Assembly: GCA_012522735.1 (NCBI GenBank)
Contig: JAAYJU010000106.1
Location: 34,095 to 98,094, forward strand
DNA: 64,000 nt
Reading direction: 5' to 3'
DNA from: Clostridiales bacterium
Lineage (GTDB): Bacteria; Bacillota; Clostridia; Lachnospirales; Lachnospiraceae
Positions 15,012 through 37,214 of this stretch are shown piece by piece. How positions within the stretch are numbered: the stretch's first letter is position 1; each line of letters opens with the position of its first letter. The notes under the pieces were generated by a model, which worked only from the letters and a program-made list of their open reading frames with translations, was not told the DNA's origin and did no database searches. The position numbers were made by a program, and so were the translations under genes.

Positions 15012-15920
15012 TTAGTCGGACTTAGACCAGGACACATGATTTTTTAATAGTTCTCGTCCTTTTTTATTTCTAATATTCTGATATGAGGGATAATGGACGT
15101 AAATCGCCTCATCCTTTTGAAGCTTAATAATCCTATTCATTAGCTCCTTAAGCTTAGGGTCATAGACAAGCTTTACTCTACCAGTTTCAAATATATCCTT
15201 GAGCCCTGTAAAGGCACTTGCCAGAAAAATAACATTCAAATCCTCTTCGTAGATAATAATCTCTGAATGTTTTGAAAGAGATAGTAACTCATTTATATGA
15301 TACCCAAAACCTAATCCATATATAATATATCTCTTAACCTCTTTATTATACCAATATCTTGCAAGCATGAAAGCCTCTGTTGGTATTCTACCATTAGTAT
15401 GAAAATAGAAGGAATCCTTTCCGTTTTTTGCGGCAAGGGTCATTAAGCCGGAGGAAGAAAACTCTACTCTATAGCCTTCCATAAGAAAGGTCTGAGGGTC
15501 GATAGATTGGTCTAGTAATCCTTCCAGCCCTAAACTAGAGCTCTTAAGCACCTTAAGATTCTCATTATAGCTTTTCTCGTCAAATGTAACCTCCTCCTTG
15601 CTAATAATCAGCTCCTGGACGCCTATAATAAAGCTAACCAGCTGAAGTTCAAGTAAATCCGCAAGGAGGATATAATCTCCCATTTTGTATGCTTCCAAAA
15701 CTCCGCTTAACATTTCCATTACAGAATCTGTGGAAACTAGATTAAAATACTCTTTGTTATCAATAATCGCTTCTATGGAATACCTAATAAGATCCATCGA
15801 ATCTGCAATAATACCAAGAGCAAGATCATGTCGCTGCTCACGAAAATAATAAATAGCCTTATCTGCCTGCCCTAGCAAATCAATATTATTATAAAATATA
15901 GTCTTTATCTTATCTGTCAT
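15012..15920 (-). CDS. Maf-related protein: small helical domain fused to a Maf N-terminal domain, no DUF115 catalytic region
   Basis: N-terminal ~105 aa has LEAYKMGDYILLADLLE, like MKALEIGDTILFSDIFE in 36011-36328. C-terminal half has YIIYGLGFGYH..IIIYE, like VSMYGLGNGIF..LIIYE in the Maf at 34135-35973. Confidence 0.55.
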   Translation of the reverse strand: MTDKIKTIFYNNIDLLGQADKAIYYFREQRHDLALGIIADSMDLIRYSIEAIIDNKEYFNLVSTDSVMEMLSGVLEAYKMGDYILLADLLELQLVSFIIGVQELIISKEEVTFDEKSYNENLKVLKSSSLGLEGLLDQSIDPQTFLMEGYRVEFSSSGLMTLAAKNGKDSFYFHTNGRIPTEAFMLARYWYNKEVKRYIIYGLGFGYHINELLSLSKHSEIIIYEEDLNVIFLASAFTGLKDIFETGRVKLVYDPKLKELMNRIIKLQKDEAIYVHYPSYQNIRNKKGRELLKNHVSWSKSD

Positions 15921-15945
15921 CGATGGTCACCTCATTTATCCCATA

Positions 15946-17868
15946 CTATCTAATGAAAAGAGATGTAATCTGAACGCATTTATATCGTACTACCTTATTC
16001 GTAGTAGCGTTAACCTCATATACTGTTATATATTCGCCGGCAGTAACAGGAATATCAGCTTCCTGAGTAAATGCCGTTCCGGTAATTACATTCTCGGTAT
16101 GAAGACCTTCAACCTTAGTTGCATCCTTGGTATATACAAGCTTATTACCTGAGCGCACTGTTGTGATTACTCTGATTGATGTACTTCCTACCGCTGTACC
16201 CTTAGCTGCTGTAGCTGTAAGAGTTGTAGCAGGAGTAGGACTTTGTATAGTTAATCTAACCGATGTTCTATCTACTGTACCATTTTTAAAGTTAATGTAA
16301 AGTGCTCTGCTGTAGCTGTTAGGAAGGTCATTTAAGTGTTCCTTCTTAAGTGTTACAGTTATAGAATACTCTACAGCAGGATTAAGAGGGTCTGTTAGGA
16401 CAGGTGTATAGCTAGGGCTAAAGTCTATCTCCCTGGTACCAAGCTTAATGGTATTTATCTCTGTCTCATAGGGAAGCTTACCTGCATTGTTTAGCTGAAT
16501 ATTGAAAGTTAAATCATCTGATATTCCCTTAACAAATGTTAGATTCTTTGTCTCAACAACAGGTACTGAAGGATAAGCTATCTTGTGACTTAAATAGGTT
16601 GAAGCTAATTCGTAGCTCACTGCAGGTGTAGTTCTTGTGGCAGGTTTTGACTTGATCTCCTTCTGCCTTATAAAGATTTCACTGCCCTCTGTTGCCCTAG
16701 ATGCCAGAACCTTTACGGCCGTGCTTCTTGTTATGGAATACCAAGCCACTCTTTCAAGATCAAAGATATCACCCGGTTTTACTACACAGTACTGATATGG
16801 ATTATCAGAAGAAGCTGATGGTATGGTTATTGAAATATTAGCTGAACCGTTATAGTTAATATATATCTTGCTATCCGATGAATCAGCGTCTGCAGGAGCC
16901 TCTCCCTCTACTATTGGACCAGGAAGTATTCTCTGTGCCGGTAATTCTATCTCAGTTATTTTAGATGCTGCTGCTCTTACTGTAGCATAATTTCTAATCT
17001 GAATAACCATAGCAGGGAAGCTTTTATCTGCTGTTAAACCGGTTGAACCGTCATTTGCTATAAGAGCCAAAGGTACGTTTCTGGTTGATCTATCTGTTAC
17101 CTGAACCCAATTAGAGGTAAGGCCATTAATAGTAGCTCGATACTCCTTACCATATCTAATATCTGCTGTGAAATCCTCTCCATCAATTCCAACAACCATA
17201 GGAGAAGCCTTCTTAGCTATTTTTAATCTAACCTCTTTGCTAATTCTTCTTCCTGCACTACCGTCTCTTAAAGTTGTATCATTTGTAGCCATAATACGAA
17301 AATATAGGTCTGCACCTTTAATTTGTAATTTCTCCAGCTGTGCAACTGTAAGACTGGATGTGTGCCTCCAAGAACCATTCTCGCCTTTTCTCCACTCTAA
17401 ATTATCAAAAGTAATAGGTTCTAGTCCAGATCCTGCTGAGGACATTATATTTACCATAGTAGCAATCGTAGCACTCTTAGGAAGACCTGCCATTTTATCA
17501 TAGCTTATAGATACTTCTAGCTTTCTAGCTCTTTCTCTTAAGGTAACTCTATGCTGTGTACCATCCTCTCCCTTTATTACAATAGTCTGCGCCACTGTTG
17601 GGGAAACCCAAGAGAAATCAATCTCCGACGTAAGACCTACATCTGCAAGCATAACCTCCCAAGAGTTCCTTGCAGCATCATTTTCTGTGGCAAAGTAGAT
17701 CTTTGTATTTCCATTATTGTTCACAATGATATTCTCATTCTCATAGTCCACTATGTTAATGGATACCGGATAAGCGGCATAGACTTGTCCCTTACCCGTT
17801 AATGATAGCAAGACAGCGGCAAATCCCAACACAAATGCGTATTTAACCATCTTTTTAAATTTTTTCAT
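15946..17868 (-). CDS. Secreted/cell-surface beta-rich protein of unknown function
   Basis: Signal peptide (MKKFKK..hydrophobic..VYAA), T/S/A/V-rich mature region, no LPXTG or SLH motif seen. Confidence 0.6.
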   Translation of the reverse strand: MKKFKKMVKYAFVLGFAAVLLSLTGKGQVYAAYPVSINIVDYENENIIVNNNGNTKIYFATENDAARNSWEVMLADVGLTSEIDFSWVSPTVAQTIVIKGEDGTQHRVTLRERARKLEVSISYDKMAGLPKSATIATMVNIMSSAGSGLEPITFDNLEWRKGENGSWRHTSSLTVAQLEKLQIKGADLYFRIMATNDTTLRDGSAGRRISKEVRLKIAKKASPMVVGIDGEDFTADIRYGKEYRATINGLTSNWVQVTDRSTRNVPLALIANDGSTGLTADKSFPAMVIQIRNYATVRAAASKITEIELPAQRILPGPIVEGEAPADADSSDSKIYINYNGSANISITIPSASSDNPYQYCVVKPGDIFDLERVAWYSITRSTAVKVLASRATEGSEIFIRQKEIKSKPATRTTPAVSYELASTYLSHKIAYPSVPVVETKNLTFVKGISDDLTFNIQLNNAGKLPYETEINTIKLGTREIDFSPSYTPVLTDPLNPAVEYSITVTLKKEHLNDLPNSYSRALYINFKNGTVDRTSVRLTIQSPTPATTLTATAAKGTAVGSTSIRVITTVRSGNKLVYTKDATKVEGLHTENVITGTAFTQEADIPVTAGEYITVYEVNATTNKVVRYKCVQITSLFIR

Positions 17869-18006
17869 CTCTTAAACCTCCAATTCACAAACCTGTTATG
17901 TACCACAAATCAGTTTATAAATGATACAATGATTAACTGTTGCAAATTATTCAAAATTTCACTATTATCATATTTATCGGTCTTTATATGATTATTCTGA
18001 ACCACT

Positions 18007-18867
18007 CTAGCTAATATCATCGAATTCTAGATATGAACAAGGTATATGTGTCTTTCGCTCTTCAATAGGCGGTAATTTCATATAATTACGGTAAATTGAT
18101 CTTAAATACCAGTCATAATTACTGAAGCCAAAGAACAAATGGCCCTCAAACTCATATTCAGATAAATTTTTAAATATTTTTTTTGGAAACCCATAGGGAT
18201 AATCCTTAGGATGAGGAGAACACATGTGAGATATAAGCTCATGTTTCCTTTTATTATTATAATTTGCAATTAATAATTGTGTTTTCATTACGAGGTTTCT
18301 AGGTATCTTTGATAATATAGAATACCACATTCTCATTAATCGATTTGGGTGTACTCTTTTACCAGCTTCTGACCATAGTGTTTTTTGGATGCAATAACTA
18401 GTAAATAAATGTATCCTTCTTAATAATATATTGTCAGGGACCCCATCCATAATAAAGATATCCAAAAACACACCATCTTGAGCTGGTATGTGCTCATATC
18501 CTGCACGAACATATCTTGTGCCTTTTAATAATAATCTAGAATACCCCCATCTGTAATAAGGATCTGTCGTGTAATCCTGAAGGAAAAACCTTTTATGATC
18601 TAGTCCCCCCTTGCTCTTACAAACCATATAAAATCGCTCGTAATCTCTACGTAGTATTACAACATCTGCATCTGTATCCCATGGAATAAAGCCCTTGTGC
18701 CTGACAGCACCCAGTAATGTACCGCCGTCTATTGCATAAGGTATATTATATGCTCTGCAAATACGATCAAATTCCACAAGACAATCTAATATATTGCTTT
18801 GTAATCCTTTGACCTGTTCGTCAGTTAGCTCTATTATACTTATATTACTACGCATTTGATACTTCAT
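18007..18867 (-). CDS. LicD family phosphotransferase (paralogue 1)
   Basis: GGTLLGAVRHKGFIPWDTDAD signature, C-terminal YLRSIYRNYMKLPP.E.R. Confidence 0.9.
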   Translation of the reverse strand: MKYQMRSNISIIELTDEQVKGLQSNILDCLVEFDRICRAYNIPYAIDGGTLLGAVRHKGFIPWDTDADVVILRRDYERFYMVCKSKGGLDHKRFFLQDYTTDPYYRWGYSRLLLKGTRYVRAGYEHIPAQDGVFLDIFIMDGVPDNILLRRIHLFTSYCIQKTLWSEAGKRVHPNRLMRMWYSILSKIPRNLVMKTQLLIANYNNKRKHELISHMCSPHPKDYPYGFPKKIFKNLSEYEFEGHLFFGFSNYDWYLRSIYRNYMKLPPIEERKTHIPCSYLEFDDIS

Positions 18868-19938: not shown

Positions 19939-20439
19939 CTAATTCTCCTGTTCTAACCCAACAGAATTAATAGCTTCTGTAATATTTAAAACATTTCCTA
20001 TTTTTTTCTTCAGCTCTTTAGTTACAGAGTCTATATTACCGAAGATTGATATCAGAATCACATCTGCACTAGGCAAATTGTCTTTTAATTTATATACTGG
20101 TAATGAATGATACAAATTATCTGCATTATTATCAATAAAATAAATCACCTCAACATTACTATCTTTAAGAGCATCATAAATAAGATAACCAATCTCTCCC
20201 ATTCCATAGATGGCAATACGATGATAGCCCGATCTCTCCAAATGGTTTGCTAGCGAATATCCAAGCTTATGTATAGCCACCCATTCAAGCATGAAATCAT
20301 ACTTACTTTTATTGAGTTCTATACTCTTATCCTTTTTGTGCTCCTGAACTTTAAGATACCGATTTTTTTTTTGTAAATCAATCACAAAATATGCTTGAAT
20401 AATAATTATTATTATAGTAGTTATAAAAAGATATATCAT
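19939..20439 (-). CDS. Membrane-anchored small Rossmann-like domain protein
   Basis: N-terminal TM helix, coiled linker, then RIAIYGMGEIG..YFIDNN. ATG at 20439 chosen from RBS spacing. Confidence 0.55.
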   Translation of the reverse strand: MIYLFITTIIIIIIQAYFVIDLQKKNRYLKVQEHKKDKSIELNKSKYDFMLEWVAIHKLGYSLANHLERSGYHRIAIYGMGEIGYLIYDALKDSNVEVIYFIDNNADNLYHSLPVYKLKDNLPSADVILISIFGNIDSVTKELKKKIGNVLNITEAINSVGLEQEN

Positions 20440-20456
20440 AGTTATCCCCAACCCTC

Positions 20457-22469
20457 TCAAATTCCAAAATACTCATTATTAGTGAATCCTAATAGTTCTA
20501 ATGCTTGACTAATCTCTTTATAATATTTTGATGAGCTAATTGCAATCTTGGAAAATTCCTGTCTTCTTTCCTTTAGTTGCTCGGGACTCATGACATCCTT
20601 ACCACGATACATAGTACCCCATTTGTTAATATCTGAATCACAGTAGCATAAAACATTACCCTGCTCAGCTTCAATTAGTTCCGTCATAAGCTCTGCATTA
20701 TTTCCCGCCCCATAAACTACATAATTATTACCTGGAATCACAATACCCTTTAAATTCTGTACAGCTTTTCTTAAGGTCGAGTAAAAATCCATTAAAATCT
20801 TAGCATCCATTGCTTTGTCAGTAAACACCTCCATAAATATGGGCTTGTCAGACGCCTCAAATAATAGTGGCATCTGCCTATCAAACTCTTCTTTATTCTT
20901 TACAGAAAGATATCTTATGTTTAAGGATTTGACCCATCCTTTAGCTTTGGTGAAGTGTTCAGCAGCAATAAAATTATCCTTAGTCTCAATAATCCGTGCT
21001 GGATTCCAGTAAAAGGTCTCTCCACCTGCATTGTTGCATAATATAATCCTTACATTGGATCCAACATAGCGATTCCATAAACCATTCATATCATAGAAAA
21101 AGCTCAGGTCACCAATAATCAGAAAAGCAAGTCGATCTTTATCTGCTACTGCCTGTCCTATAAAACTGGATAAACCCCCATCAATTCCTGTTGTACCGCG
21201 GTTCGAATAAACAGTAGTAATAGGATTAATAGAATAGCTCTGTGAAAATCTTACGATTGAATCAATGCCTAGATGAAGAATTGTATTACCTGGTATTTTC
21301 TTCATCATTTGTTGAATTATATAATTATTACTAAAAGGTAGCTCCTGATTAATCAAATGCTCTATTGAAGCTATCTTTGCCTTTATTAAATTATAATACC
21401 CTGCATTTTCTTTAGAATCCTCTGACCTACTATCAAATACATTCTCATTAAAAAATTCAAAGAATTCTCGATTATCTCCCTCAATAACATGTGTCAGCTT
21501 CTGTAAATGATCTATAATTCTGCCTTCCTCATTGACACACCAGTGCTCCATATATCCTGAATAATTTTTTAGGCGCAAACGGAGCTTGGACATATATTGT
21601 CCATTCATTGATATAACGATATCCGGCGCAATCTGTGTAAACTGACTATCTGAAATAACCTCAGACAAAAGGTAGAGGTTGATAGCTTTACTACAATGAA
21701 CATTGGCAATGTTCTCCACTGAAACAACACAATTATATTTCTTGCAGAATTCTTCAATTAATTGTCTCTCTTTGTCATCTACATTATGATTTTGTCCATA
21801 AATAAGTAGAACTCTCTTTTTATAAAGGTGTTTCTGTAATTGTTCTTGCATTGTTCTGTCTAACTTATGTAATACTAATTGTTCTATCTTTTTTACTTCG
21901 GGTAAAGTATCAGCATTAAAGGAAATAAACGGATGCTTTCCAGCACTATCTACAGGAATATTAATATGTACGGGACCTCTACCATTATGATTTAATTCCA
22001 TAAGTGCCTCGTTAATTATTCTCTCACAGTACCAAGCATCACGTGAGTCCTGTACAATAGGAAGTGTCACTTCTTTTTTGCATACTTGATTAAATATACT
22101 ACTTTGGGGTATTTGTTGTTCCTCAAGCTGGAATAACGTATAAGGAGTTTTGTCTGCTGTTATTACAACCAAGGGTATACTCTGATAACAAGCCTCATTT
22201 ACAGCTGCCGAATAATTAACAGATGCTGTACCCGAAGTACAGCATATGCCCACATAGCAATCATGACTTTCCTGTGCCAAGCCCATAGCAAAAAAACCTG
22301 CGCTACGTTCATCGACAATAGAGTAGCATTCGAAGAAATCATCTCTCTCTAAGGAATGAACTATTGGTGAATTTCTTGCTCCTGGAGATAAAACCATTTT
22401 CTTAACTTTATATTTTTTTAGTAGTGCGATTAATATCTGTACATTTTCAATTTCAGAATACATAATCAT
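20457..22469 (-). CDS. MenD-like thiamine-diphosphate enzyme with an appended C-terminal Rossmann-like domain
   Basis: VLSPGARNSP, VDERSAGFFAMGLA, CCTSGTA, NRGTTGIDG, IGDLSFFYDMN, plus an extra ~90 aa tail starting YVVYGAGNN. No other men genes in the window. Confidence 0.8.
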   Translation of the reverse strand: MIMYSEIENVQILIALLKKYKVKKMVLSPGARNSPIVHSLERDDFFECYSIVDERSAGFFAMGLAQESHDCYVGICCTSGTASVNYSAAVNEACYQSIPLVVITADKTPYTLFQLEEQQIPQSSIFNQVCKKEVTLPIVQDSRDAWYCERIINEALMELNHNGRGPVHINIPVDSAGKHPFISFNADTLPEVKKIEQLVLHKLDRTMQEQLQKHLYKKRVLLIYGQNHNVDDKERQLIEEFCKKYNCVVSVENIANVHCSKAINLYLLSEVISDSQFTQIAPDIVISMNGQYMSKLRLRLKNYSGYMEHWCVNEEGRIIDHLQKLTHVIEGDNREFFEFFNENVFDSRSEDSKENAGYYNLIKAKIASIEHLINQELPFSNNYIIQQMMKKIPGNTILHLGIDSIVRFSQSYSINPITTVYSNRGTTGIDGGLSSFIGQAVADKDRLAFLIIGDLSFFYDMNGLWNRYVGSNVRIILCNNAGGETFYWNPARIIETKDNFIAAEHFTKAKGWVKSLNIRYLSVKNKEEFDRQMPLLFEASDKPIFMEVFTDKAMDAKILMDFYSTLRKAVQNLKGIVIPGNNYVVYGAGNNAELMTELIEAEQGNVLCYCDSDINKWGTMYRGKDVMSPEQLKERRQEFSKIAISSSKYYKEISQALELLGFTNNEYFGI

Positions 22470-23890
22470 TCCTCCTGATATTCAATAATCTCACTTACAT
22501 CGTAGTCCATGCATAGATAGGACTCCATATTGAGAAGTACCTTTTTCTTTGATTTTTCTCTGGCTTGATTATATACAGATGTATAATTATTTCGACTTAA
22601 CACAATAATAAAATCAACCTCTTGCCAACAGTCCTCATAATTACATATCTTTTGCTCGTTCTCTACTAAATCACCCCAGAGCAAAGGATCTCTATCAATA
22701 ATATGATCTAACTCTAATTGGTTTTCTGCTAATACTGGATATAGTGCTCTAAGATACTTCCCAGCTCCCCACACAGCTACTTTGTATTGATTCTCTTTAA
22801 TATAATCAAATAACCTTTTTATTCTATCAATACAGAATTTATACTTCAATTTCATATATTTTTGAATATAATCTCTCCCTTTATGTGACATTATAAAATC
22901 TTCTCTTTCTCCACGCCACGATGATATATCTTGTGCATTATAAACAATCTGATTTAAGATATCTATATAAAAGAAATTAGCACTCCTTCCTATGTACTGA
23001 AGATTATCAGGATCTGCTCCCAAAGCAATAAAATGATTATTTACATTTATTATGGTTTTTATCGGAAGATCATCTACATAGTTTAGATAATAACTCATGA
23101 TTCTAATCCAATATTTTAACATCCAATGGTTACATTCCTGAGGATATTTATCAAAGTAATCATTATTTTTTAAAAAATCTGCCAAACTAAAAACAGACTG
23201 TGTTAAATTGTTGATTTTATTACAATCTATATTATGTAAGGTTGAATCCTCATTAATGTTGTTATAGTAATAAAAGGCTTCCCTAACATATTCTATTCTA
23301 TAAGCCTCTAGATACCATCTTAATACAATAGCTGTATCTTCAAAAAAAATGTTTTCTGGAAAGAATAGTTGATGCTCTGTTATAAAATCCTTTCTTATAA
23401 TATTGCTCCAGCAATATGCCTTGTACATTAGAATAATGCCACGTGTCTTCGTGTCATCTATAACTCCAGTAAGCTTATGTTCATAGGCAGCAAGATATTT
23501 ATGGGCATTAGTATTCACATCTATCATATAATAATCGCACATAACGATATCAGCGCTAGTATGTTCTGCCTTTTCATATAGCCTTCTACATGTGTCTAAA
23601 TCAATATAATCATCACTATCTACAAATTTGATGTATTTACCTCTAGCTTTTCGTATACCAACATTTCTGGCTCCCCCCTGACGCATATTTTTGTCCAAAA
23701 ATATTCCTATTACCTTGTCAGGATATTTCGATACATATTCTCTAATTATTAAATGAGAATTATCAGGGGATTTGTCATCTACGACGATGATTTCTATTTC
23801 CTGTAGCGTCTGATTAACACAGGAGTCTAAGCATTGACGTAGTGTTTTTTCTACATTATATACAGGGATTATTATGCTGACTTTTATCAT
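22466..23890 (-). CDS. Glycosyltransferase family 2 with C-terminal Rossmann-like tail
   Basis: VSIIIPVYNVEK, VDDKSPD, GGARNVG, FVDSDDY, FFEDT; tail KVAVWGAGK. Confidence 0.88.
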   Translation of the reverse strand: MIKVSIIIPVYNVEKTLRQCLDSCVNQTLQEIEIIVVDDKSPDNSHLIIREYVSKYPDKVIGIFLDKNMRQGGARNVGIRKARGKYIKFVDSDDYIDLDTCRRLYEKAEHTSADIVMCDYYMIDVNTNAHKYLAAYEHKLTGVIDDTKTRGIILMYKAYCWSNIIRKDFITEHQLFFPENIFFEDTAIVLRWYLEAYRIEYVREAFYYYNNINEDSTLHNIDCNKINNLTQSVFSLADFLKNNDYFDKYPQECNHWMLKYWIRIMSYYLNYVDDLPIKTIINVNNHFIALGADPDNLQYIGRSANFFYIDILNQIVYNAQDISSWRGEREDFIMSHKGRDYIQKYMKLKYKFCIDRIKRLFDYIKENQYKVAVWGAGKYLRALYPVLAENQLELDHIIDRDPLLWGDLVENEQKICNYEDCWQEVDFIIVLSRNNYTSVYNQAREKSKKKVLLNMESYLCMDYDVSEIIEYQEE

Positions 23891-25368
23891 GTAATTGAAC
23901 CTCCGGCTAATTTAGGAGCTAACACTTGCTCCATATTTATGTTATATTTGTTGAGATTTAGTATTATATCCTCAAACGAATTACTTGCTATTACTATATA
24001 GTTAAATAATTTCTCATTATACTTTAAATCCTGAACTGAAAAGACTGGTTTTCCCTGGCATAGGGTACCTGCTTTCTCCATATCTGAATCACAGTATCCA
24101 ATAACAACTCCCTCTCTTTGCAGTATATAGTTTGTAACCTTTAATCCATTCTTTCCAGTTCCATATACTATATATTTTCCATCTCTTTTAACATCAAAAT
24201 CATCAGAAAATCTATCAGAGCGAAAATTATAGGATATCTCTTCAAGATACCTTCGAATCGGAAGATATTGCGGACATGCCTTCTCACATTTTCCGCATTT
24301 TATACAGTCAGATGCATGACCTGAGTTTGTTATTATAGTATTATATAAAGAAATATGTCGTCCCTTATGTATCCTATCTGTATCAACTTTTTTTTGCATA
24401 GAATTATATATATGAAACAACTCAGGAATTCTTATATTCTTCGGGCACTCCTTCACACAATACAAGCAAGCAGTACATTGTATTTTATAATATGAGTTAA
24501 TCATATCCACAATTTGACTTATTAGCTCTTGCTCTTCCTGCGATAAAGGCTTGAATTCAGTCATAATATTGACATTATCCTGTAATTGAGCAATATTTGA
24601 CATGCCGCTTAATACCATTTCTACCCCTGGTAACGATGCTACATAACGAAGTGCTAAAGAGACCGGAGACTCTTTCCTATCCAAGGATTTAATTTTTTCT
24701 TCAACATTATTAGGAACATTAGCTAAAGCTCCACCCTTAATCGGCTCCATAACAAATATAGTCTTATTATGCTTACGGGCTATCTCATAGCATTTTCTTG
24801 ATTGAATGTGTGGACTTTCCCAATCTAGGTAATTAAGCTGTAGCTGTACAAAATCGACATCAGGATACTTTATCAAAACCTGGTCTAAAAGATCAGCATT
24901 ATCATGAAATGAAAAACCTATACTTTTGGCATATCCTCTGCCCTTTAAGCTGCTGACAAATTCAAATAATTCATGGCTTACCATATCATCATAAACTGTA
25001 CCATTTACATTATGGATATAATATATATCAAAATAATCAACCCCACACCTTATTAGCTGCTCCATAAAGAATTGTTCATAACCACCCTTTTTTATTGCAA
25101 TATGATGAGTCATTTTATCGGCTAATATATATTGATTCCTTTGATACCTTGTGGTTAAACACTCATGAATAGCTATTTCAGACATCCCGTTATGGTATGG
25201 ATATGCTGTCTCAAAGTAATTAAATCCATTCTCAATAAATAGGTCGGTCATTCTTGATACTTCATCATAATTAATATCCTTTATACTTGAACCATGTAGC
25301 GGCAATCTCATAAAGCCAAAGCCTAACTTCTTCTTAAAAAAATTGCTTAAATTATTCATTTGCTCCAC
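23887..25368 (-). CDS. Aldo/keto reductase with 4Fe-4S dicluster and Rossmann-like tail
   Basis: LGFGFMRLP, YFETAYPYH, VMEPIKGG, VLSGMS, CTACLYC..CP and CIKCGKCEKACP; tail YIVYGTGKNG. Confidence 0.88.
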   Translation of the reverse strand: MEQMNNLSNFFKKKLGFGFMRLPLHGSSIKDINYDEVSRMTDLFIENGFNYFETAYPYHNGMSEIAIHECLTTRYQRNQYILADKMTHHIAIKKGGYEQFFMEQLIRCGVDYFDIYYIHNVNGTVYDDMVSHELFEFVSSLKGRGYAKSIGFSFHDNADLLDQVLIKYPDVDFVQLQLNYLDWESPHIQSRKCYEIARKHNKTIFVMEPIKGGALANVPNNVEEKIKSLDRKESPVSLALRYVASLPGVEMVLSGMSNIAQLQDNVNIMTEFKPLSQEEQELISQIVDMINSYYKIQCTACLYCVKECPKNIRIPELFHIYNSMQKKVDTDRIHKGRHISLYNTIITNSGHASDCIKCGKCEKACPQYLPIRRYLEEISYNFRSDRFSDDFDVKRDGKYIVYGTGKNGLKVTNYILQREGVVIGYCDSDMEKAGTLCQGKPVFSVQDLKYNEKLFNYIVIASNSFEDIILNLNKYNINMEQVLAPKLAGGSIT

Positions 25369-25371
25369 CTT

Positions 25372-26469
25372 TTAATATGTTTCCATAACCTGGTCAATAG
25401 ATTTCTTAAGAATGCTAATAGAATGATTACGTTTTTTCTCTATTAATGGTCTAACACTAGTATAATCAACCTGATAATCGCTTATCTTATCACAATCACC
25501 TATTGTAATCATCCTATCCTCTAATCCTGTTTCTACCAATATAGTCTTAATTCTGCTTATATTTTTATTACTGATTACTGAATAAAAAGGAATACCCAGA
25601 TTAATTGAAAAGGCAGTACCATGAAAGGAGGTGGTAATAACTAAGGAAGCATGCTGTATATATGCAACAAAATCCAAGGGACCGGCATCATGAATATATT
25701 CCAGATTACACTCTTTATAAATATCCTTTAGGGAAATAACCTTTAATGCAAGATGAAACTTTTTAGCCATCATTTTGGCAATTGATAACCCTCCCTCGAC
25801 ATATCCTACTTCATAATATAATAGATATGGCTTGTGTGTACATTCATTATTACTACACCACTCATCCTTAGATATTAAAAAGGTTGGATCCTCTACTTGG
25901 CCTATATCCATACCCAGAAGACTTCCAACCATCTCTGCTCCCGACTTTTCTCTCATAAATATGTAATCATATTGCTTCATAAAGTCTATATAGGGCATTA
26001 ATTTGCTCCTGTTACTAGATCCCATACTTGGCGCATAAGCAATACGATGCTTTATTTGCGGATAAGGCATAAAATAAAAGTCTGAATACCAACCATTTCC
26101 TCTAAAATCAAGATTCCAAATTTGATCACTTCCTGTTATCACAATATCATAAGACTTGATCTCCTCACTATTCTCAAACTCCTTAGAGGTGAGAAAAGCA
26201 TGCTTGCTTAAGTTTAGTTCGTTCTCAATAAACTCTTGAAATTTCTGATATCGAATTATATTATAATTGGCCGTTTTCTTATAAATTTGGTTCTGAATTT
26301 TTGTCGGATCATAAGCATCTCTGTGTTTTTGAGTAGCAAAATCAATAATCTCGCATTCATACCCAAGCTTTTTAATCGTTTTTTGAAGAGCATAGGCTTG
26401 TAGTACGGCACCATAATTAACAGGTCTATGAAAGGTTGCTATGCCAATTTTTATATTGCCTTTGTCCAT
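25372..26469 (-). CDS. Polysaccharide pyruvyl transferase family protein (WcaK/CsaB-like)
   Basis: NYGAVLQAYAL, ITGSDQIWN, YAPSMG, MRE..G, DPTFL, VITTSFHGTAFSI. Confidence 0.85.
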   Translation of the reverse strand: MDKGNIKIGIATFHRPVNYGAVLQAYALQKTIKKLGYECEIIDFATQKHRDAYDPTKIQNQIYKKTANYNIIRYQKFQEFIENELNLSKHAFLTSKEFENSEEIKSYDIVITGSDQIWNLDFRGNGWYSDFYFMPYPQIKHRIAYAPSMGSSNRSKLMPYIDFMKQYDYIFMREKSGAEMVGSLLGMDIGQVEDPTFLISKDEWCSNNECTHKPYLLYYEVGYVEGGLSIAKMMAKKFHLALKVISLKDIYKECNLEYIHDAGPLDFVAYIQHASLVITTSFHGTAFSINLGIPFYSVISNKNISRIKTILVETGLEDRMITIGDCDKISDYQVDYTSVRPLIEKKRNHSISILKKSIDQVMETY

Positions 26470-26510
26470 AATACTTGTCCTTCCCCTTTATTTTTGTGGC
26501 TTATGAATGG

Positions 26511-27803
26511 CTATCTATATATCTCAAATTCAGTTTTATTATTGACTAATATATAGGGGATTCCTTTTTCAGCTAGTAGCTTTGCTGCAAAAATATGTGC
26601 TGCCTCGGGAATTACAAATACAATTAAATTATTATCAGTATCCTCTAACTCATCCGAATGAATAATTTTTTTATCCTCATAATATGAGCCGTAAATATTC
26701 TGATCTATAAAAAACTGCATAGACCAGTTTGGAAACTTCTGTTTAATAAAGTGATAAAAGTTAATTGTATCCGAGCGAATTCCCCATAATGCATAGGATA
26801 TTTGTGAATTATGAAAAGGTAGATTGCTTATTGCATCTGATAATCCCTTATTATATTCTGCTCTGTTACGATTTTCCCAATAAGTACTTATATCCAAAAA
26901 CTGTGCATTATCATTGTATGCTTTTTTTATCTGATTGCTAAACACGGATATCATCTGTTCTTTTTCATTTTCATATTCTATAGGCGAAGGATTCCAATCA
27001 ATATCTTTAAAATTAGTAGGCGTATATAAGGGCACGAACTTATCAATCCAGGAAAAACGAGTATCAAAATTATCGCCAGCTAGTATTACAGGAATGCCCA
27101 TTGCAATACAGGGAACAGCTGCATGTAACCTAGAAGTAATTACCAGTGAAGCATCTTCCTTATACATTAAGAGTTGCTGATATGCTTTCGCATTATATAC
27201 CGATATTTCATCATCCGAAAGAAAGAACGAATCTGTAAGTCTTTCCATTACAGGCAAATGTGTTGTTATTTCAATCCTGTTCTTTAGCACAGATGGTATA
27301 TAATCCAATATACTCCTTGGAGCATCGACCACATAGATCTTGCTCCCCTTAATAAACTTATCCCTTCTGGGTAAAGTTGCAGTCATACAACCTGATATAA
27401 AAGCTCTAATTCCGATTTTTCTAAGGTTAATCATTGTTTGTTCATCTCTACACCCAATTGGCTGGTAACTGCGTAGCTGATCAAGAATACTCTCATCAAA
27501 ATCCTCTGTAAACAAATGGAAGCTAGTAAAGACAGGAATAATTTTATCAGATACTGGGAGTGTATTGAATTGATTCTGGTACTGATCATGAATAGCATTA
27601 TAACAGCTCATAGGTAAAATCACATATTCTCCATCGTATGACTTAAGCTGATAATAATCGATATGTATAATTTGCTCATCATCAATCCCCATTCTCTTAT
27701 ATAGATTATAAAGAGCATAGGATTGAATTGGATCTCCAAGATTACACCACTTTTTACTATCTTTGCGTACGGATTTTCTGTATTGTAGTATACCATACTT
27801 CAT
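26511..27803 (-). CDS. Second polysaccharide pyruvyl transferase family protein with C-terminal extension
   Basis: NLGDPIQS, PIGCRD..T, SGCMTATLP, VITSRLHAAVPCIAMGIPV. Confidence 0.75.
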   Translation of the reverse strand: MKYGILQYRKSVRKDSKKWCNLGDPIQSYALYNLYKRMGIDDEQIIHIDYYQLKSYDGEYVILPMSCYNAIHDQYQNQFNTLPVSDKIIPVFTSFHLFTEDFDESILDQLRSYQPIGCRDEQTMINLRKIGIRAFISGCMTATLPRRDKFIKGSKIYVVDAPRSILDYIPSVLKNRIEITTHLPVMERLTDSFFLSDDEISVYNAKAYQQLLMYKEDASLVITSRLHAAVPCIAMGIPVILAGDNFDTRFSWIDKFVPLYTPTNFKDIDWNPSPIEYENEKEQMISVFSNQIKKAYNDNAQFLDISTYWENRNRAEYNKGLSDAISNLPFHNSQISYALWGIRSDTINFYHFIKQKFPNWSMQFFIDQNIYGSYYEDKKIIHSDELEDTDNNLIVFVIPEAAHIFAAKLLAEKGIPYILVNNKTEFEIYR

Positions 27804-33736: not shown

Positions 33737-34114
33737 TTATCCAAAATATTTATATAGCATTTCCAATGACAACATTCTATCATCCACATAATAATCTGCA
33801 TTTGGTTTTCCAAAGTGGAGCTCATGATACTTTAGTTCCCATCTAGACATCTGGTCTTTCGTAACAGAAGACCAATCTATCCCAGTAACATAGCCTCTTG
33901 CAGTAAATAACACTATATAATTACCCATATCATATAACTTGTTTATTATATTAATCATAGGTATGTTAGGCTCAGCCAGCTCATAGTTATTATCCTTAGC
34001 TTGATTTGCTATTACCCCATCTATATCAAACACAAATCTTCTACCACCATGTGAGATGTTCATATAGTCTTCTTTAATCTTATTTTCTAGGTGTTTAGAA
34101 TAATCTATATTCAT
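33737..34114 (-). CDS. Small HAD-superfamily phosphatase (capsule-biosynthesis phosphatase type)
   Basis: VFDIDGVI (DxD), LFTARG, GKP.ADYYVDD. Confidence 0.8.
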   Translation of the reverse strand: MNIDYSKHLENKIKEDYMNISHGGRRFVFDIDGVIANQAKDNNYELAEPNIPMINIINKLYDMGNYIVLFTARGYVTGIDWSSVTKDQMSRWELKYHELHFGKPNADYYVDDRMLSLEMLYKYFG

Positions 34115-36395: not shown

Positions 36396-37214
36396 TTACT
36401 GTAATAATGCAAGTACACCCTGTGTCTGTTGATTAGCCTGAGCAAGCATAGATTGTGCAGCCTGTTGAAGGATAGTATCCTTTGCAAAGTTAACCATCTC
36501 TTTTGCCATATCAACGTCACGGATACGAGCTTCGGCAGCCTGTAAATTCTCAGCGGTATTATCTGCATTTGCAATTGTATGCTCTAACCTATTCTGTAAT
36601 GCTCCAAGAGCAGATCTCTGAGTAGATACATTGTCAAGAGCAGTCTGAATTGTGGATATCGCACCAGTAGCACCAACGTGAGATAATACTGCAGATGCAA
36701 CACCTGTAATTGATAATGCAGATGCTCTCATGTCATTAATGCTGAATGTTATAATCTGACTTGTGTTAGCTCCTACCTGAAGATTCTTGGATGAGAAAGT
36801 ACCATCTAATAACTTCATGGTATTGAATTCAGTCTGATTTCCTATACGAGTCACTTCATCAGTTAATGCTGTTAACTCTTTCTGAATAGCCTGACGGTCT
36901 GCTGATACGTTAGTATCATTAGATGCCTGAACAGCAAGCTCTCTCATTCTCTGAAGGATAGACTGTGTCTCATTTAGAGCACCTTCTGCTGTCTGAATTA
37001 AGGAGATACCGTCCTGAGCATTTGTTGATGCCTGGGAAAGACCTCTGATCTGTCCGCGCATCTTCTCGGAAATTGTAAGTCCAGCTGCATTGTCGCCTGC
37101 ACGGTTAATCTTATAACCAGATGACAATTTCTCTGTAGCCTTAGCAATATTTCCTGTGGTAATACCTAACTGTCTGTTTGTGTTGGCTGCTGCCATGTTG
37201 TGTTGAATAATCAT
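36396..37214 (-). CDS. fliC: Flagellin (short, 272 aa)
   Basis: MIIQHNMAA, EKLSSGYKINRAGDNAAGL, LQRMRELAVQ, RSALGALQNRLEH, ILQQAAQSMLAQAN. Confidence 0.98.
   Translation of the reverse strand: MIIQHNMAAANTNRQLGITTGNIAKATEKLSSGYKINRAGDNAAGLTISEKMRGQIRGLSQASTNAQDGISLIQTAEGALNETQSILQRMRELAVQASNDTNVSADRQAIQKELTALTDEVTRIGNQTEFNTMKLLDGTFSSKNLQVGANTSQIITFSINDMRASALSITGVASAVLSHVGATGAISTIQTALDNVSTQRSALGALQNRLEHTIANADNTAENLQAAEARIRDVDMAKEMVNFAKDTILQQAAQSMLAQANQQTQGVLALLQ

Follow-up and report, generated by a model that had tools for sequence, protein, structure and literature searches.

A mobile mini-Rossmann domain, probably nucleotide-binding, on unrelated enzymes and on a membrane helix in a Lachnospiraceae flagellin glycosylation island

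A recurrent domain in a flagellin glycosylation island

We analyzed a 64,000-nucleotide stretch of a Lachnospiraceae genome (Clostridiales bacterium, GenBank assembly GCA_012522735.1, contig JAAYJU010000106.1, forward-strand positions 34,095 to 98,094), referred to here as the window. It contains a flagellin glycosylation island in which every gene lies on the minus strand. The island begins with genes for flagellin, a Maf transferase, a HAD-like protein, NeuB and a CMP-type cytidylyltransferase, followed by GT2-TPR, a Glyphos_transf protein, IspD and LicD. Next come pyruvyltransferase 2 (PvT2), pyruvyltransferase 1 (PvT1), an AKR with a 4Fe-4S domain, a GT2 and a MenD-like ThDP enzyme. A small protein with a hydrophobic helix, which we call the solo-module protein, an SDR epimerase and a second LicD complete the order.

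A preliminary description of the window had noted similar segments on five of these proteins: the C-terminal tails of the MenD-like enzyme, the AKR, the GT2 and PvT2, and the only soluble domain of the solo-module protein. Our analysis confirmed the homology and the location of all five segments, which are copies of one mobile mini-Rossmann domain of ~90 residues. We refer to this domain as the module. The copies are listed below with their E-values from a genome-wide profile search, and positions are those of the window.

19984..20226, minus strand: module copy 1, residues 72-152 of the solo-module protein; YGMGEIG loop and IDNN present, KxG absent; E 2.7e-7
20460..20735, minus strand: module copy 2, tail of the MenD-like ThDP enzyme, residues 579-670; all family motifs intact; E 5e-32
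22556..22795, minus strand: module copy 3, tail of the GT2, residues 366-445; WGAGKY loop and IDRD present, K42 lost; E 5.9e-6
23908..24195, minus strand: module copy 4, tail of the AKR/4Fe-4S protein, residues 392-487; motifs intact except P55; E 8e-29
26541..26804, minus strand: module copy 5, tail of PvT2, residues 334-421; glycine loop degenerate (WGIRSD), Asp at the end of beta2 kept; E 3.4e-3

Homology of the five copies

The MenD and AKR tails share 42% identity over 67 amino acids (aa; 58 bits, pairwise BLASTP), and the other tail pairs were not significant by the same comparison. A two-sequence profile of the MenD and AKR tails missed the other three copies in their own genome, even at E<=10. 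Word-indexed searches with the AKR tail or the solo-module protein returned just the query itself or one close homologue. The module profile was constructed from 172 domains taken from an exhaustive HMMER search started with the MenD+AKR tail profile, and we used it to search all 9,131 open reading frames (ORFs) of at least 60 aa in this genome. This search gave the E-values listed above. The sole further ORF at E<1e-3 was the Rex repressor (E 3.4e-5; 232 aa, contig C220, reverse-strand coordinates 17949-18644), which is the only module-like ORF of the genome outside the island.

The PvT2 copy scored marginally in the genome-wide search. We accepted it because the profile of the PvT2 tail family, made from 108 full-length homologues, matches the module profile in HHalign (probability 97.8%, E 1.2e-12, 88 columns). 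The tail matches the module profile in register in 72 of 120 PvT2 homologues. Full-length orthologues of the GT2 with an equivalent tail are found at three other loci (L006, L007 and L008). Profile E-values and HHalign show that the tails align significantly, and the AlphaFold2 (AF2) models of the MenD tail and the solo-module protein, described below, have matching folds.

One part of the preliminary description did not hold. It had called the MenD and AKR tails strikingly alike, but each has closer relatives on other enzymes elsewhere, and ~40% identity is typical within the subfamily that contains them. The best match of the MenD tail is the tail of an AKR-MenD fusion protein, followed by GT2 tails. 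These closer relatives also led us to reject homogenisation of the two tails within the locus.

Fold and sequence conservation

We modeled the MenD tail with AF2 using a 40-sequence alignment. The resulting 97-aa model has a mean predicted local distance difference test score (pLDDT) of 97 and a predicted TM-score (pTM) of 0.89. Its elements follow the order beta-alpha-beta-beta-alpha-beta-alpha-beta and form a five-stranded mixed sheet (strands 9-13, 32-37, 51-54, 68-71 and 94-96) with three helices (19-28, 56-61 and 77-86). The PglD_N fold has been described as a five-strand mixed sheet with three helices (PMC8040287), and the modeled tail has this composition.

Searching the PDB with the MenD-tail model in Foldseek returned 3nkl (TM-score 0.73), 2g6t (0.73), VioB 7txp (0.70, root-mean-square deviation 2.2 Å), WbaP 8t53 (0.69) and Rex structures (0.65-0.71, E about 1e-5). 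PerB (TM-score 0.64), the PglB acetyltransferase domain and succinyl-CoA synthetase were also matched. The module profile recovered the same relatives among PDB sequences, with E-values of 7e-12 for 3nkl, 8e-9 for Rex, 3e-7 for 2g6t, 1e-5 for VioB and 6e-4 for WbaP. The module thus belongs to the superfamily that includes the PglD/VioB N-terminal domain, the Rex/CoA-binding domains, C2185-like_N, the PglF/WbpM-type N-terminal domain (3nkl) and the WbaP domain of unknown function (DUF).

Curated models of this superfamily score the window copies as follows. PglD_N (PF17836, cut-off 23.4 bits) gives 22.2 bits to the solo copy and 14.9 to the MenD tail and does not match the other three. CoA_binding (PF02629, cut-off 22.3 bits) gives 18.0 bits to the AKR tail and 15.4 to the PvT2 tail, and Methyltransf_14 reaches 14-15 bits at most. 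C2185-like_N (PF22674, cut-off 27 bits) had no match on the window copies in direct scans, and searching this genome with the same model matched nothing relevant. Precomputed domain tables place PF22674 on the AKR protein, on a 63%-identical homologue of the solo-module protein and on many PvT2 relatives. Among 118 relatives, the Pfam models matching the module itself were Methyltransf_14 (20), PglD_N (13, E<=1e-3), C2185-like_N (11) and CoA_binding (5). The fold and the nucleotide-binding superfamily are already known, but the subfamily is largely missed by curated models.

Conservation across the 172 domains is highest at G13 (100%), D37 (98%), G15 (87%), K42 (84%) and G44 (84%), and G49, P55 and L81 are conserved as well. 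Among these best-conserved positions are the glycine loop that follows beta1 and the aspartate with which beta2 ends. The first glycine of the loop and the beta2 aspartate are present in all five window copies, and the second glycine is lost in PvT2 only. PvT2 and its relatives at >=50% identity, among them the one at L001:10001-11290, have a degenerate loop, WG[IL]R[SA]D; the wider PvT2 family keeps WGaGvhG.

The module across proteins and genomes

The exhaustive HMMER search found 1,453 representative proteins at E<=1e-3. Among the best 150 of these, the module was placed C-terminally in 64, internally in 55 and N-terminally in 46, and it stood essentially alone in 15. Partner domains among the 118 relatives were GT2 (29), FkbM methyltransferase (19), radical SAM (9), NKWYS (7), PS_pyruv_trans (3), LicD (2) and TPP enzymes (2), together with class I methyltransferases, SDR and GT1. 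The AKR and MenD-like enzymes of the window are joined in P0006, a 1,046-aa protein of another organism that fuses an AKR/4Fe-4S part (49% core identity) to a MenD-like part (54%) and ends in a single C-terminal module.

We found matches in 28 of 31 genomes (this genome and 30 relatives), where the module genes are clustered. Genome G008 has nine module genes in 15 kb, G014 has eight in 9.5 kb, G022 has eight in ~20 kb, and G004 and G009 have five each. In the G008 cluster (L005:3070-18121), the module occurs on nine of about twelve consecutive genes: four GT2s, one WbsX glycosyltransferase (GT), one GDPD-like, one cytidylyltransferase-like and one xylose-isomerase-like barrel protein, and a 363-aa protein that has no Pfam match apart from the module. 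A HAD-like protein in G014 carries it as well. The portability claimed in the preliminary description is therefore more general than stated there, since the module is found at either end or in the middle of many enzyme families and in clusters of five to nine genes. It is not specific to this locus.

A membrane-anchored form of the module

In the solo-module protein, a membrane helix stands in place of an enzyme. Its features are as follows.

19939..20439, minus strand: solo-module protein, 166 aa; N-terminal hydrophobic helix, Lys-rich helical linker and module
20380..20439, minus strand: predicted membrane helix of the solo-module protein, residues 1-20; Kyte-Doolittle hydropathy 2.55 over residues 2-20

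The gene starts with an ATG at 20439, with a GGGG(A) sequence resembling a ribosome-binding site 7 nt upstream, and its stop codon lies 1 nt before the ATG of the epimerase gene. An AF2 model made with eight homologues consists of a helix at residues 2-58 followed by the module (pLDDT 81 overall and 85-92 in most of the module). Foldseek with this full-length model gave a best E of only 0.01, matching Rossmann-type entries that include FkbM 2py6, Rex and the PglB acetyltransferase domain; the 58-residue helix probably dilutes the query. The charge flanking the hydrophobic helix is equally positive on both sides across the family and favors neither orientation. From its fold, the module of this protein is predicted to be cytoplasmic.

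The solo form recurs in related genomes and makes up a conserved Lachnospiraceae family with more than 80 members. These proteins are ~160 aa long and begin with a hydrophobic helix, to which a conserved linker helix (YY..LNQW) joins the module. AIYGMGE and D103 are invariant in the family alignment, and G84, D103 and D126, which all lie outside the pattern used for searching, are 100% conserved. A pattern scan of one genome per species identified 79 loci, mostly in Lachnospiraceae, with 80 short helix-anchored forms. In a further 27 larger proteins from the scan, the solo linker and module subtype forms a C-terminal tail. Nine of ten such proteins that we scanned are GTs of unrelated folds (five GT2, two WbsX, one GT4/GT1 and one GT10). 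WbsX genes adjoin solo genes in L006 and L008. WbsX and a solo-type module are fused in G008, and they are separate, adjacent genes in G004 and G002.

The neighbors of solo genes are varied and mostly code for GTs. The module is present on 24 of 84 upstream and 13 of 79 downstream neighbors, and at 13 of the 79 solo loci the solo gene is the only one with a module in a range of about 5 kb. At one locus of a same-genus genome (L011:6382-10001), the solo-module gene lies within a glycan island between genes for UDP-galactopyranose mutase and a glycyl-radical (PFL-like) enzyme, the latter being unusual for a glycan locus.

Composition of the island and related islands

Two further genes of the island serve as reference points.

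36396-37214, minus strand: flagellin, of the glycosylation island that contains the module-bearing genes
25372..26469, minus strand: PvT1, which lies inside the block of module-bearing genes and has no module; negative control

PvT1 had no module match in the genome-wide profile search, and its only Pfam domain is PS_pyruv_trans.

We compared the window to three related islands, L001 (9045-13916), L002 and L003. Each has a 53%-identical PvT2 in the company of GT2-TPR, Glyphos_transf, IspD and LicD genes, a second LicD and an epimerase. The block formed by PvT1, AKR, GT2, MenD and the solo gene is absent from all three. A 650-bp gap in L001 was searched for a hidden solo gene, and none was found. 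The PvT2 tail is the sole copy of the window's five in these islands, whose remaining genes were not scanned with the module profile. Because L001-L003 lack the block, the PvT1-AKR-GT2-MenD-solo segment of the window (19939-26469) looks like an inserted cassette.

Three other observations were made during these comparisons. A PvT2 homologue with 49% identity, P0163, is recorded under Paenibacillus solani and is not encoded in this genome. A 302-aa protein of the window matches the Maf N-terminal domain only, in a Rossmann-like stretch containing YGLGFGY, and it adjoins a 640-aa SbsC_C-domain protein (the pair at 15012-17868). A same-genus genome has a corresponding pair flanking its island (L010:1-2891), consisting of a 558-aa Maf-N-like protein (37% identity) and an SbsC-like protein (53% identity).

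Comparison with characterized domains

We compared the module to domains of known systems. Rex binds NAD(H) and is a dimer. Its NAD(H)-binding domain is the closest functionally characterized relative by profile, with the match (E 8e-9) covering the whole module, and the two have a D-x-D-x-x-K-x-G stretch in common. Rex has a winged-helix DNA-binding domain and a swapped C-terminal dimerisation helix, and the window modules have neither. The best match by both sequence and structure is 3nkl (E 7e-12, TM-score 0.73). It comes from a protein deposited as UDP-D-quinovosamine 4-dehydrogenase, and we interpret it as the Rossmann-like domain at the N-terminus of a PglF/WbpM/CapD-type enzyme. In that family the Rossmann-like domain also follows membrane helices, as it does in the solo-module protein. 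However, a polypeptide with the 3nkl-type domain continues into an SDR dehydratase, whereas the solo form is a free-standing family of ~160 aa. Methyltransf_14, which represents the C-terminal domain of sugar C-methyltransferases of the TcaB9/TylC3 type, and C2185-like_N (PDB 2g6t) are among the Pfam models most often matched by module relatives. The C-terminal domain of TcaB9 reportedly binds the dTDP-sugar substrate. A literature search returned nothing usable on this domain or on C2185/HI1244/2G6T/PF22674.

The N-terminal domains of PglD, VioB and PerB resemble the module in their mini-Rossmann fold, in the YG-x-G loop that follows beta1 and in having an aspartate where beta2 ends. In enzymes of this type, the glycine-loop and beta2 residues hold the UDP or TDP of the sugar substrate; in PglD, the contacts to ribose, uracil and phosphate come from Ser13 of the loop together with Asp35 and Asp36 of the beta2 end (PMC8040287). 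The module differs from PglD_N in its additional conserved K-x-G and S-P motifs and in its surroundings. A left-handed beta-helix follows the N-domain in PglD-type proteins, whereas the module is attached to either end of unrelated enzymes or occurs alone, and a Pfam scan found no Hexapep domain in any of the five window proteins. The WbaP DUF (CoA_binding_3, PF13727) has the same fold as the module and likewise accompanies the catalytic part of a glycan-pathway enzyme as an accessory domain. It binds UMP, UDP and UTP, forms most of the dimer interface and has been proposed to be an allosteric regulator or sensor (PMC10942596). The dimer contact is a beta-hairpin swap (PMC10942596), and the hairpin insertion is absent from the 97-aa module model. 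The WbaP DUF also has a fixed place in one architecture, whereas the module is freely shuffled.

Discussion

We propose that the module is a nucleotide-binding accessory domain, a reading to which we assign a probability of roughly 0.6. It is suggested by the pattern of conservation: the glycine loop and the beta2 aspartate are the best-conserved positions, and in PglD-type relatives they are nucleotide-binding residues. By analogy with PglD-type and classical Rossmann domains, these elements would hold the phosphate and ribose of the ligand. The preliminary description had offered nucleotide sensing as one possible function, and this fits the homology, as the fold, loop and aspartate correspond to those of PglD-type UDP platforms, of Rex and of the WbaP DUF, which binds UMP.

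The bound nucleotide may serve different ends on different proteins. On the MenD-like enzyme and the AKR, it would be the handle of an NDP- or CMP-linked sugar substrate, following the examples of the PglD N-domain and the TcaB9 C-domain; we put this forward tentatively. A platform for the enzyme's own substrate is unlikely for GT tails and the solo copy because GTs already bind a donor nucleotide. For the GT-type tails and the solo copy, the nucleotide may instead be an effector, or the domain may support dimerisation, or both, as reported for the WbaP DUF, and this assignment is more doubtful than the preceding one. A tethering role would also fit these copies better than a substrate platform. 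The P0006 fusion supports joint action of the AKR and MenD-like enzymes of the window (20457-25368). They possibly act together in a branched-chain sugar step resembling that of YerE/YerF, reportedly the branched-sugar pair of yersiniose biosynthesis.

Several observations weigh against this interpretation or parts of it. None of the window copies reaches a Pfam gathering threshold. As far as the fold goes, UDP, CDP, CMP, NAD(H) and CoA are all candidate ligands. The PvT2 clade keeps the domain despite losing the second glycine, and the canonical loop is therefore not needed in at least one clade. The solo subtype is fused to GTs of unrelated folds (GT2, GT4, GT10 and WbsX) that already bind a nucleotide-sugar donor, which speaks against a substrate platform in those proteins, and the solo copy itself lacks any catalytic domain. 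Finally, 29 of the 150 best representatives contain two or three module copies.

Two alternatives concern the identity of the copies themselves. The segments could resemble each other by chance, through generic GxG...D motifs without common origin, and the three non-significant pairwise BLAST comparisons and the failure of the two-sequence profile to find three copies would fit such a view. The genome-wide profile search and HHalign refute it: four copies were recovered (E 3e-7 to 5e-32, with the GT2 tail at 5.9e-6), the fifth is linked by the 97.8% HHalign probability, the AF2 folds match, and only Rex was found besides at E<1e-3. We consider chance likeness barely credible. It is also very improbable that the solo-module protein is the split-off N-terminal part (membrane helix and Rossmann-like domain) of a PglF/WbpM/CapD-type dehydratase whose other half is the adjacent epimerase. 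Such a split would account for 3nkl being the best PDB relative, for the single nucleotide between the solo stop and the SDR start, and for a weak Polysacc_synt_2 match on the SDR. However, the solo form is conserved as such at more than 80 loci next to varied neighbors, only 1 of 72 downstream genes has Polysacc_synt_2, and the window SDR is a standard 355-aa Epimerase-family protein (4e-39) with homologues that stand alone in L001-L003. We rejected the split on the basis of the neighbor survey.

The remaining alternatives concern function. The preliminary description also proposed a docking tag: contacts between modules would bring the tailoring enzymes together in one complex, a metabolon, anchored to the membrane through the solo copy. 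We regard this as unlikely, though it could coexist with nucleotide binding. Five to nine module genes lie side by side in islands, and the conserved solo copy has a membrane helix instead of an enzyme, both as docking would predict. The solo subtype, including its linker helix, recurs as the tail of GT2, GT4, GT10 and WbsX proteins, the last of which adjoins the solo gene in two loci, and there are two Rosetta-stone cases: AKR-MenD with one module in P0006, and WbsX with a solo module in G008. Related domains lie in the dimer interfaces of WbaP and Rex, and the PvT2 copy survives with a degenerate loop. Against docking, the strongest conservation is at ligand-type positions, with no obvious surface patch, and the MenD and AKR tails are not mutual nearest relatives, so that co-adaptation in pairs is not apparent. 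Solo genes lack a constant neighbor, as the counts above indicate. WbaP dimerises through a beta-hairpin swap and Rex through a swapped C-terminal helix, and the module model has neither element. L001-L003 retain a tailed PvT2 though the PvT1-AKR-GT2-MenD-solo block is absent, their other genes not having been scanned with the profile. A purely structural role, in which the module stabilises or homo-oligomerises each enzyme separately without a ligand or contacts between enzymes, is less probable still. Accessory oligomerisation domains are common on Gram-positive glycosyltransferases such as TarS and TarP, which provides a precedent, and the degenerate loop of the PvT2 clade and the tandem modules in 29 of 150 relatives are compatible with it. 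However, if no ligand were bound, it would be difficult to account for the near invariance of G13 and D37 in 172 divergent domains, and the solo membrane form has nothing to stabilise.

A bolder version of the docking reading combines it with nucleotide binding: the module would be the common address label of Lachnospiraceae glycan islands, mediating nucleotide-gated assembly of enzymes of unrelated folds on the solo-module protein. We think this improbable. If it were true, it would mean a membrane-tethered metabolon for glycan tailoring beside the flagellar export machinery, with a logic for protein glycosylation like that of dockerin and cohesin.

Our literature search found no description of the module subfamily, its promiscuity in Lachnospiraceae glycan islands or its solo paralogue. 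In flagellin and other glycan islands of this family, a large proportion of the enzymes carry the module. Knowing its ligand would improve the annotation of thousands of proteins now described as glycosyltransferase or methyltransferase family members. It would also tell whether tailoring occurs on nucleotide-linked sugars and whether a common domain underlies the organisation or regulation of these pathways.

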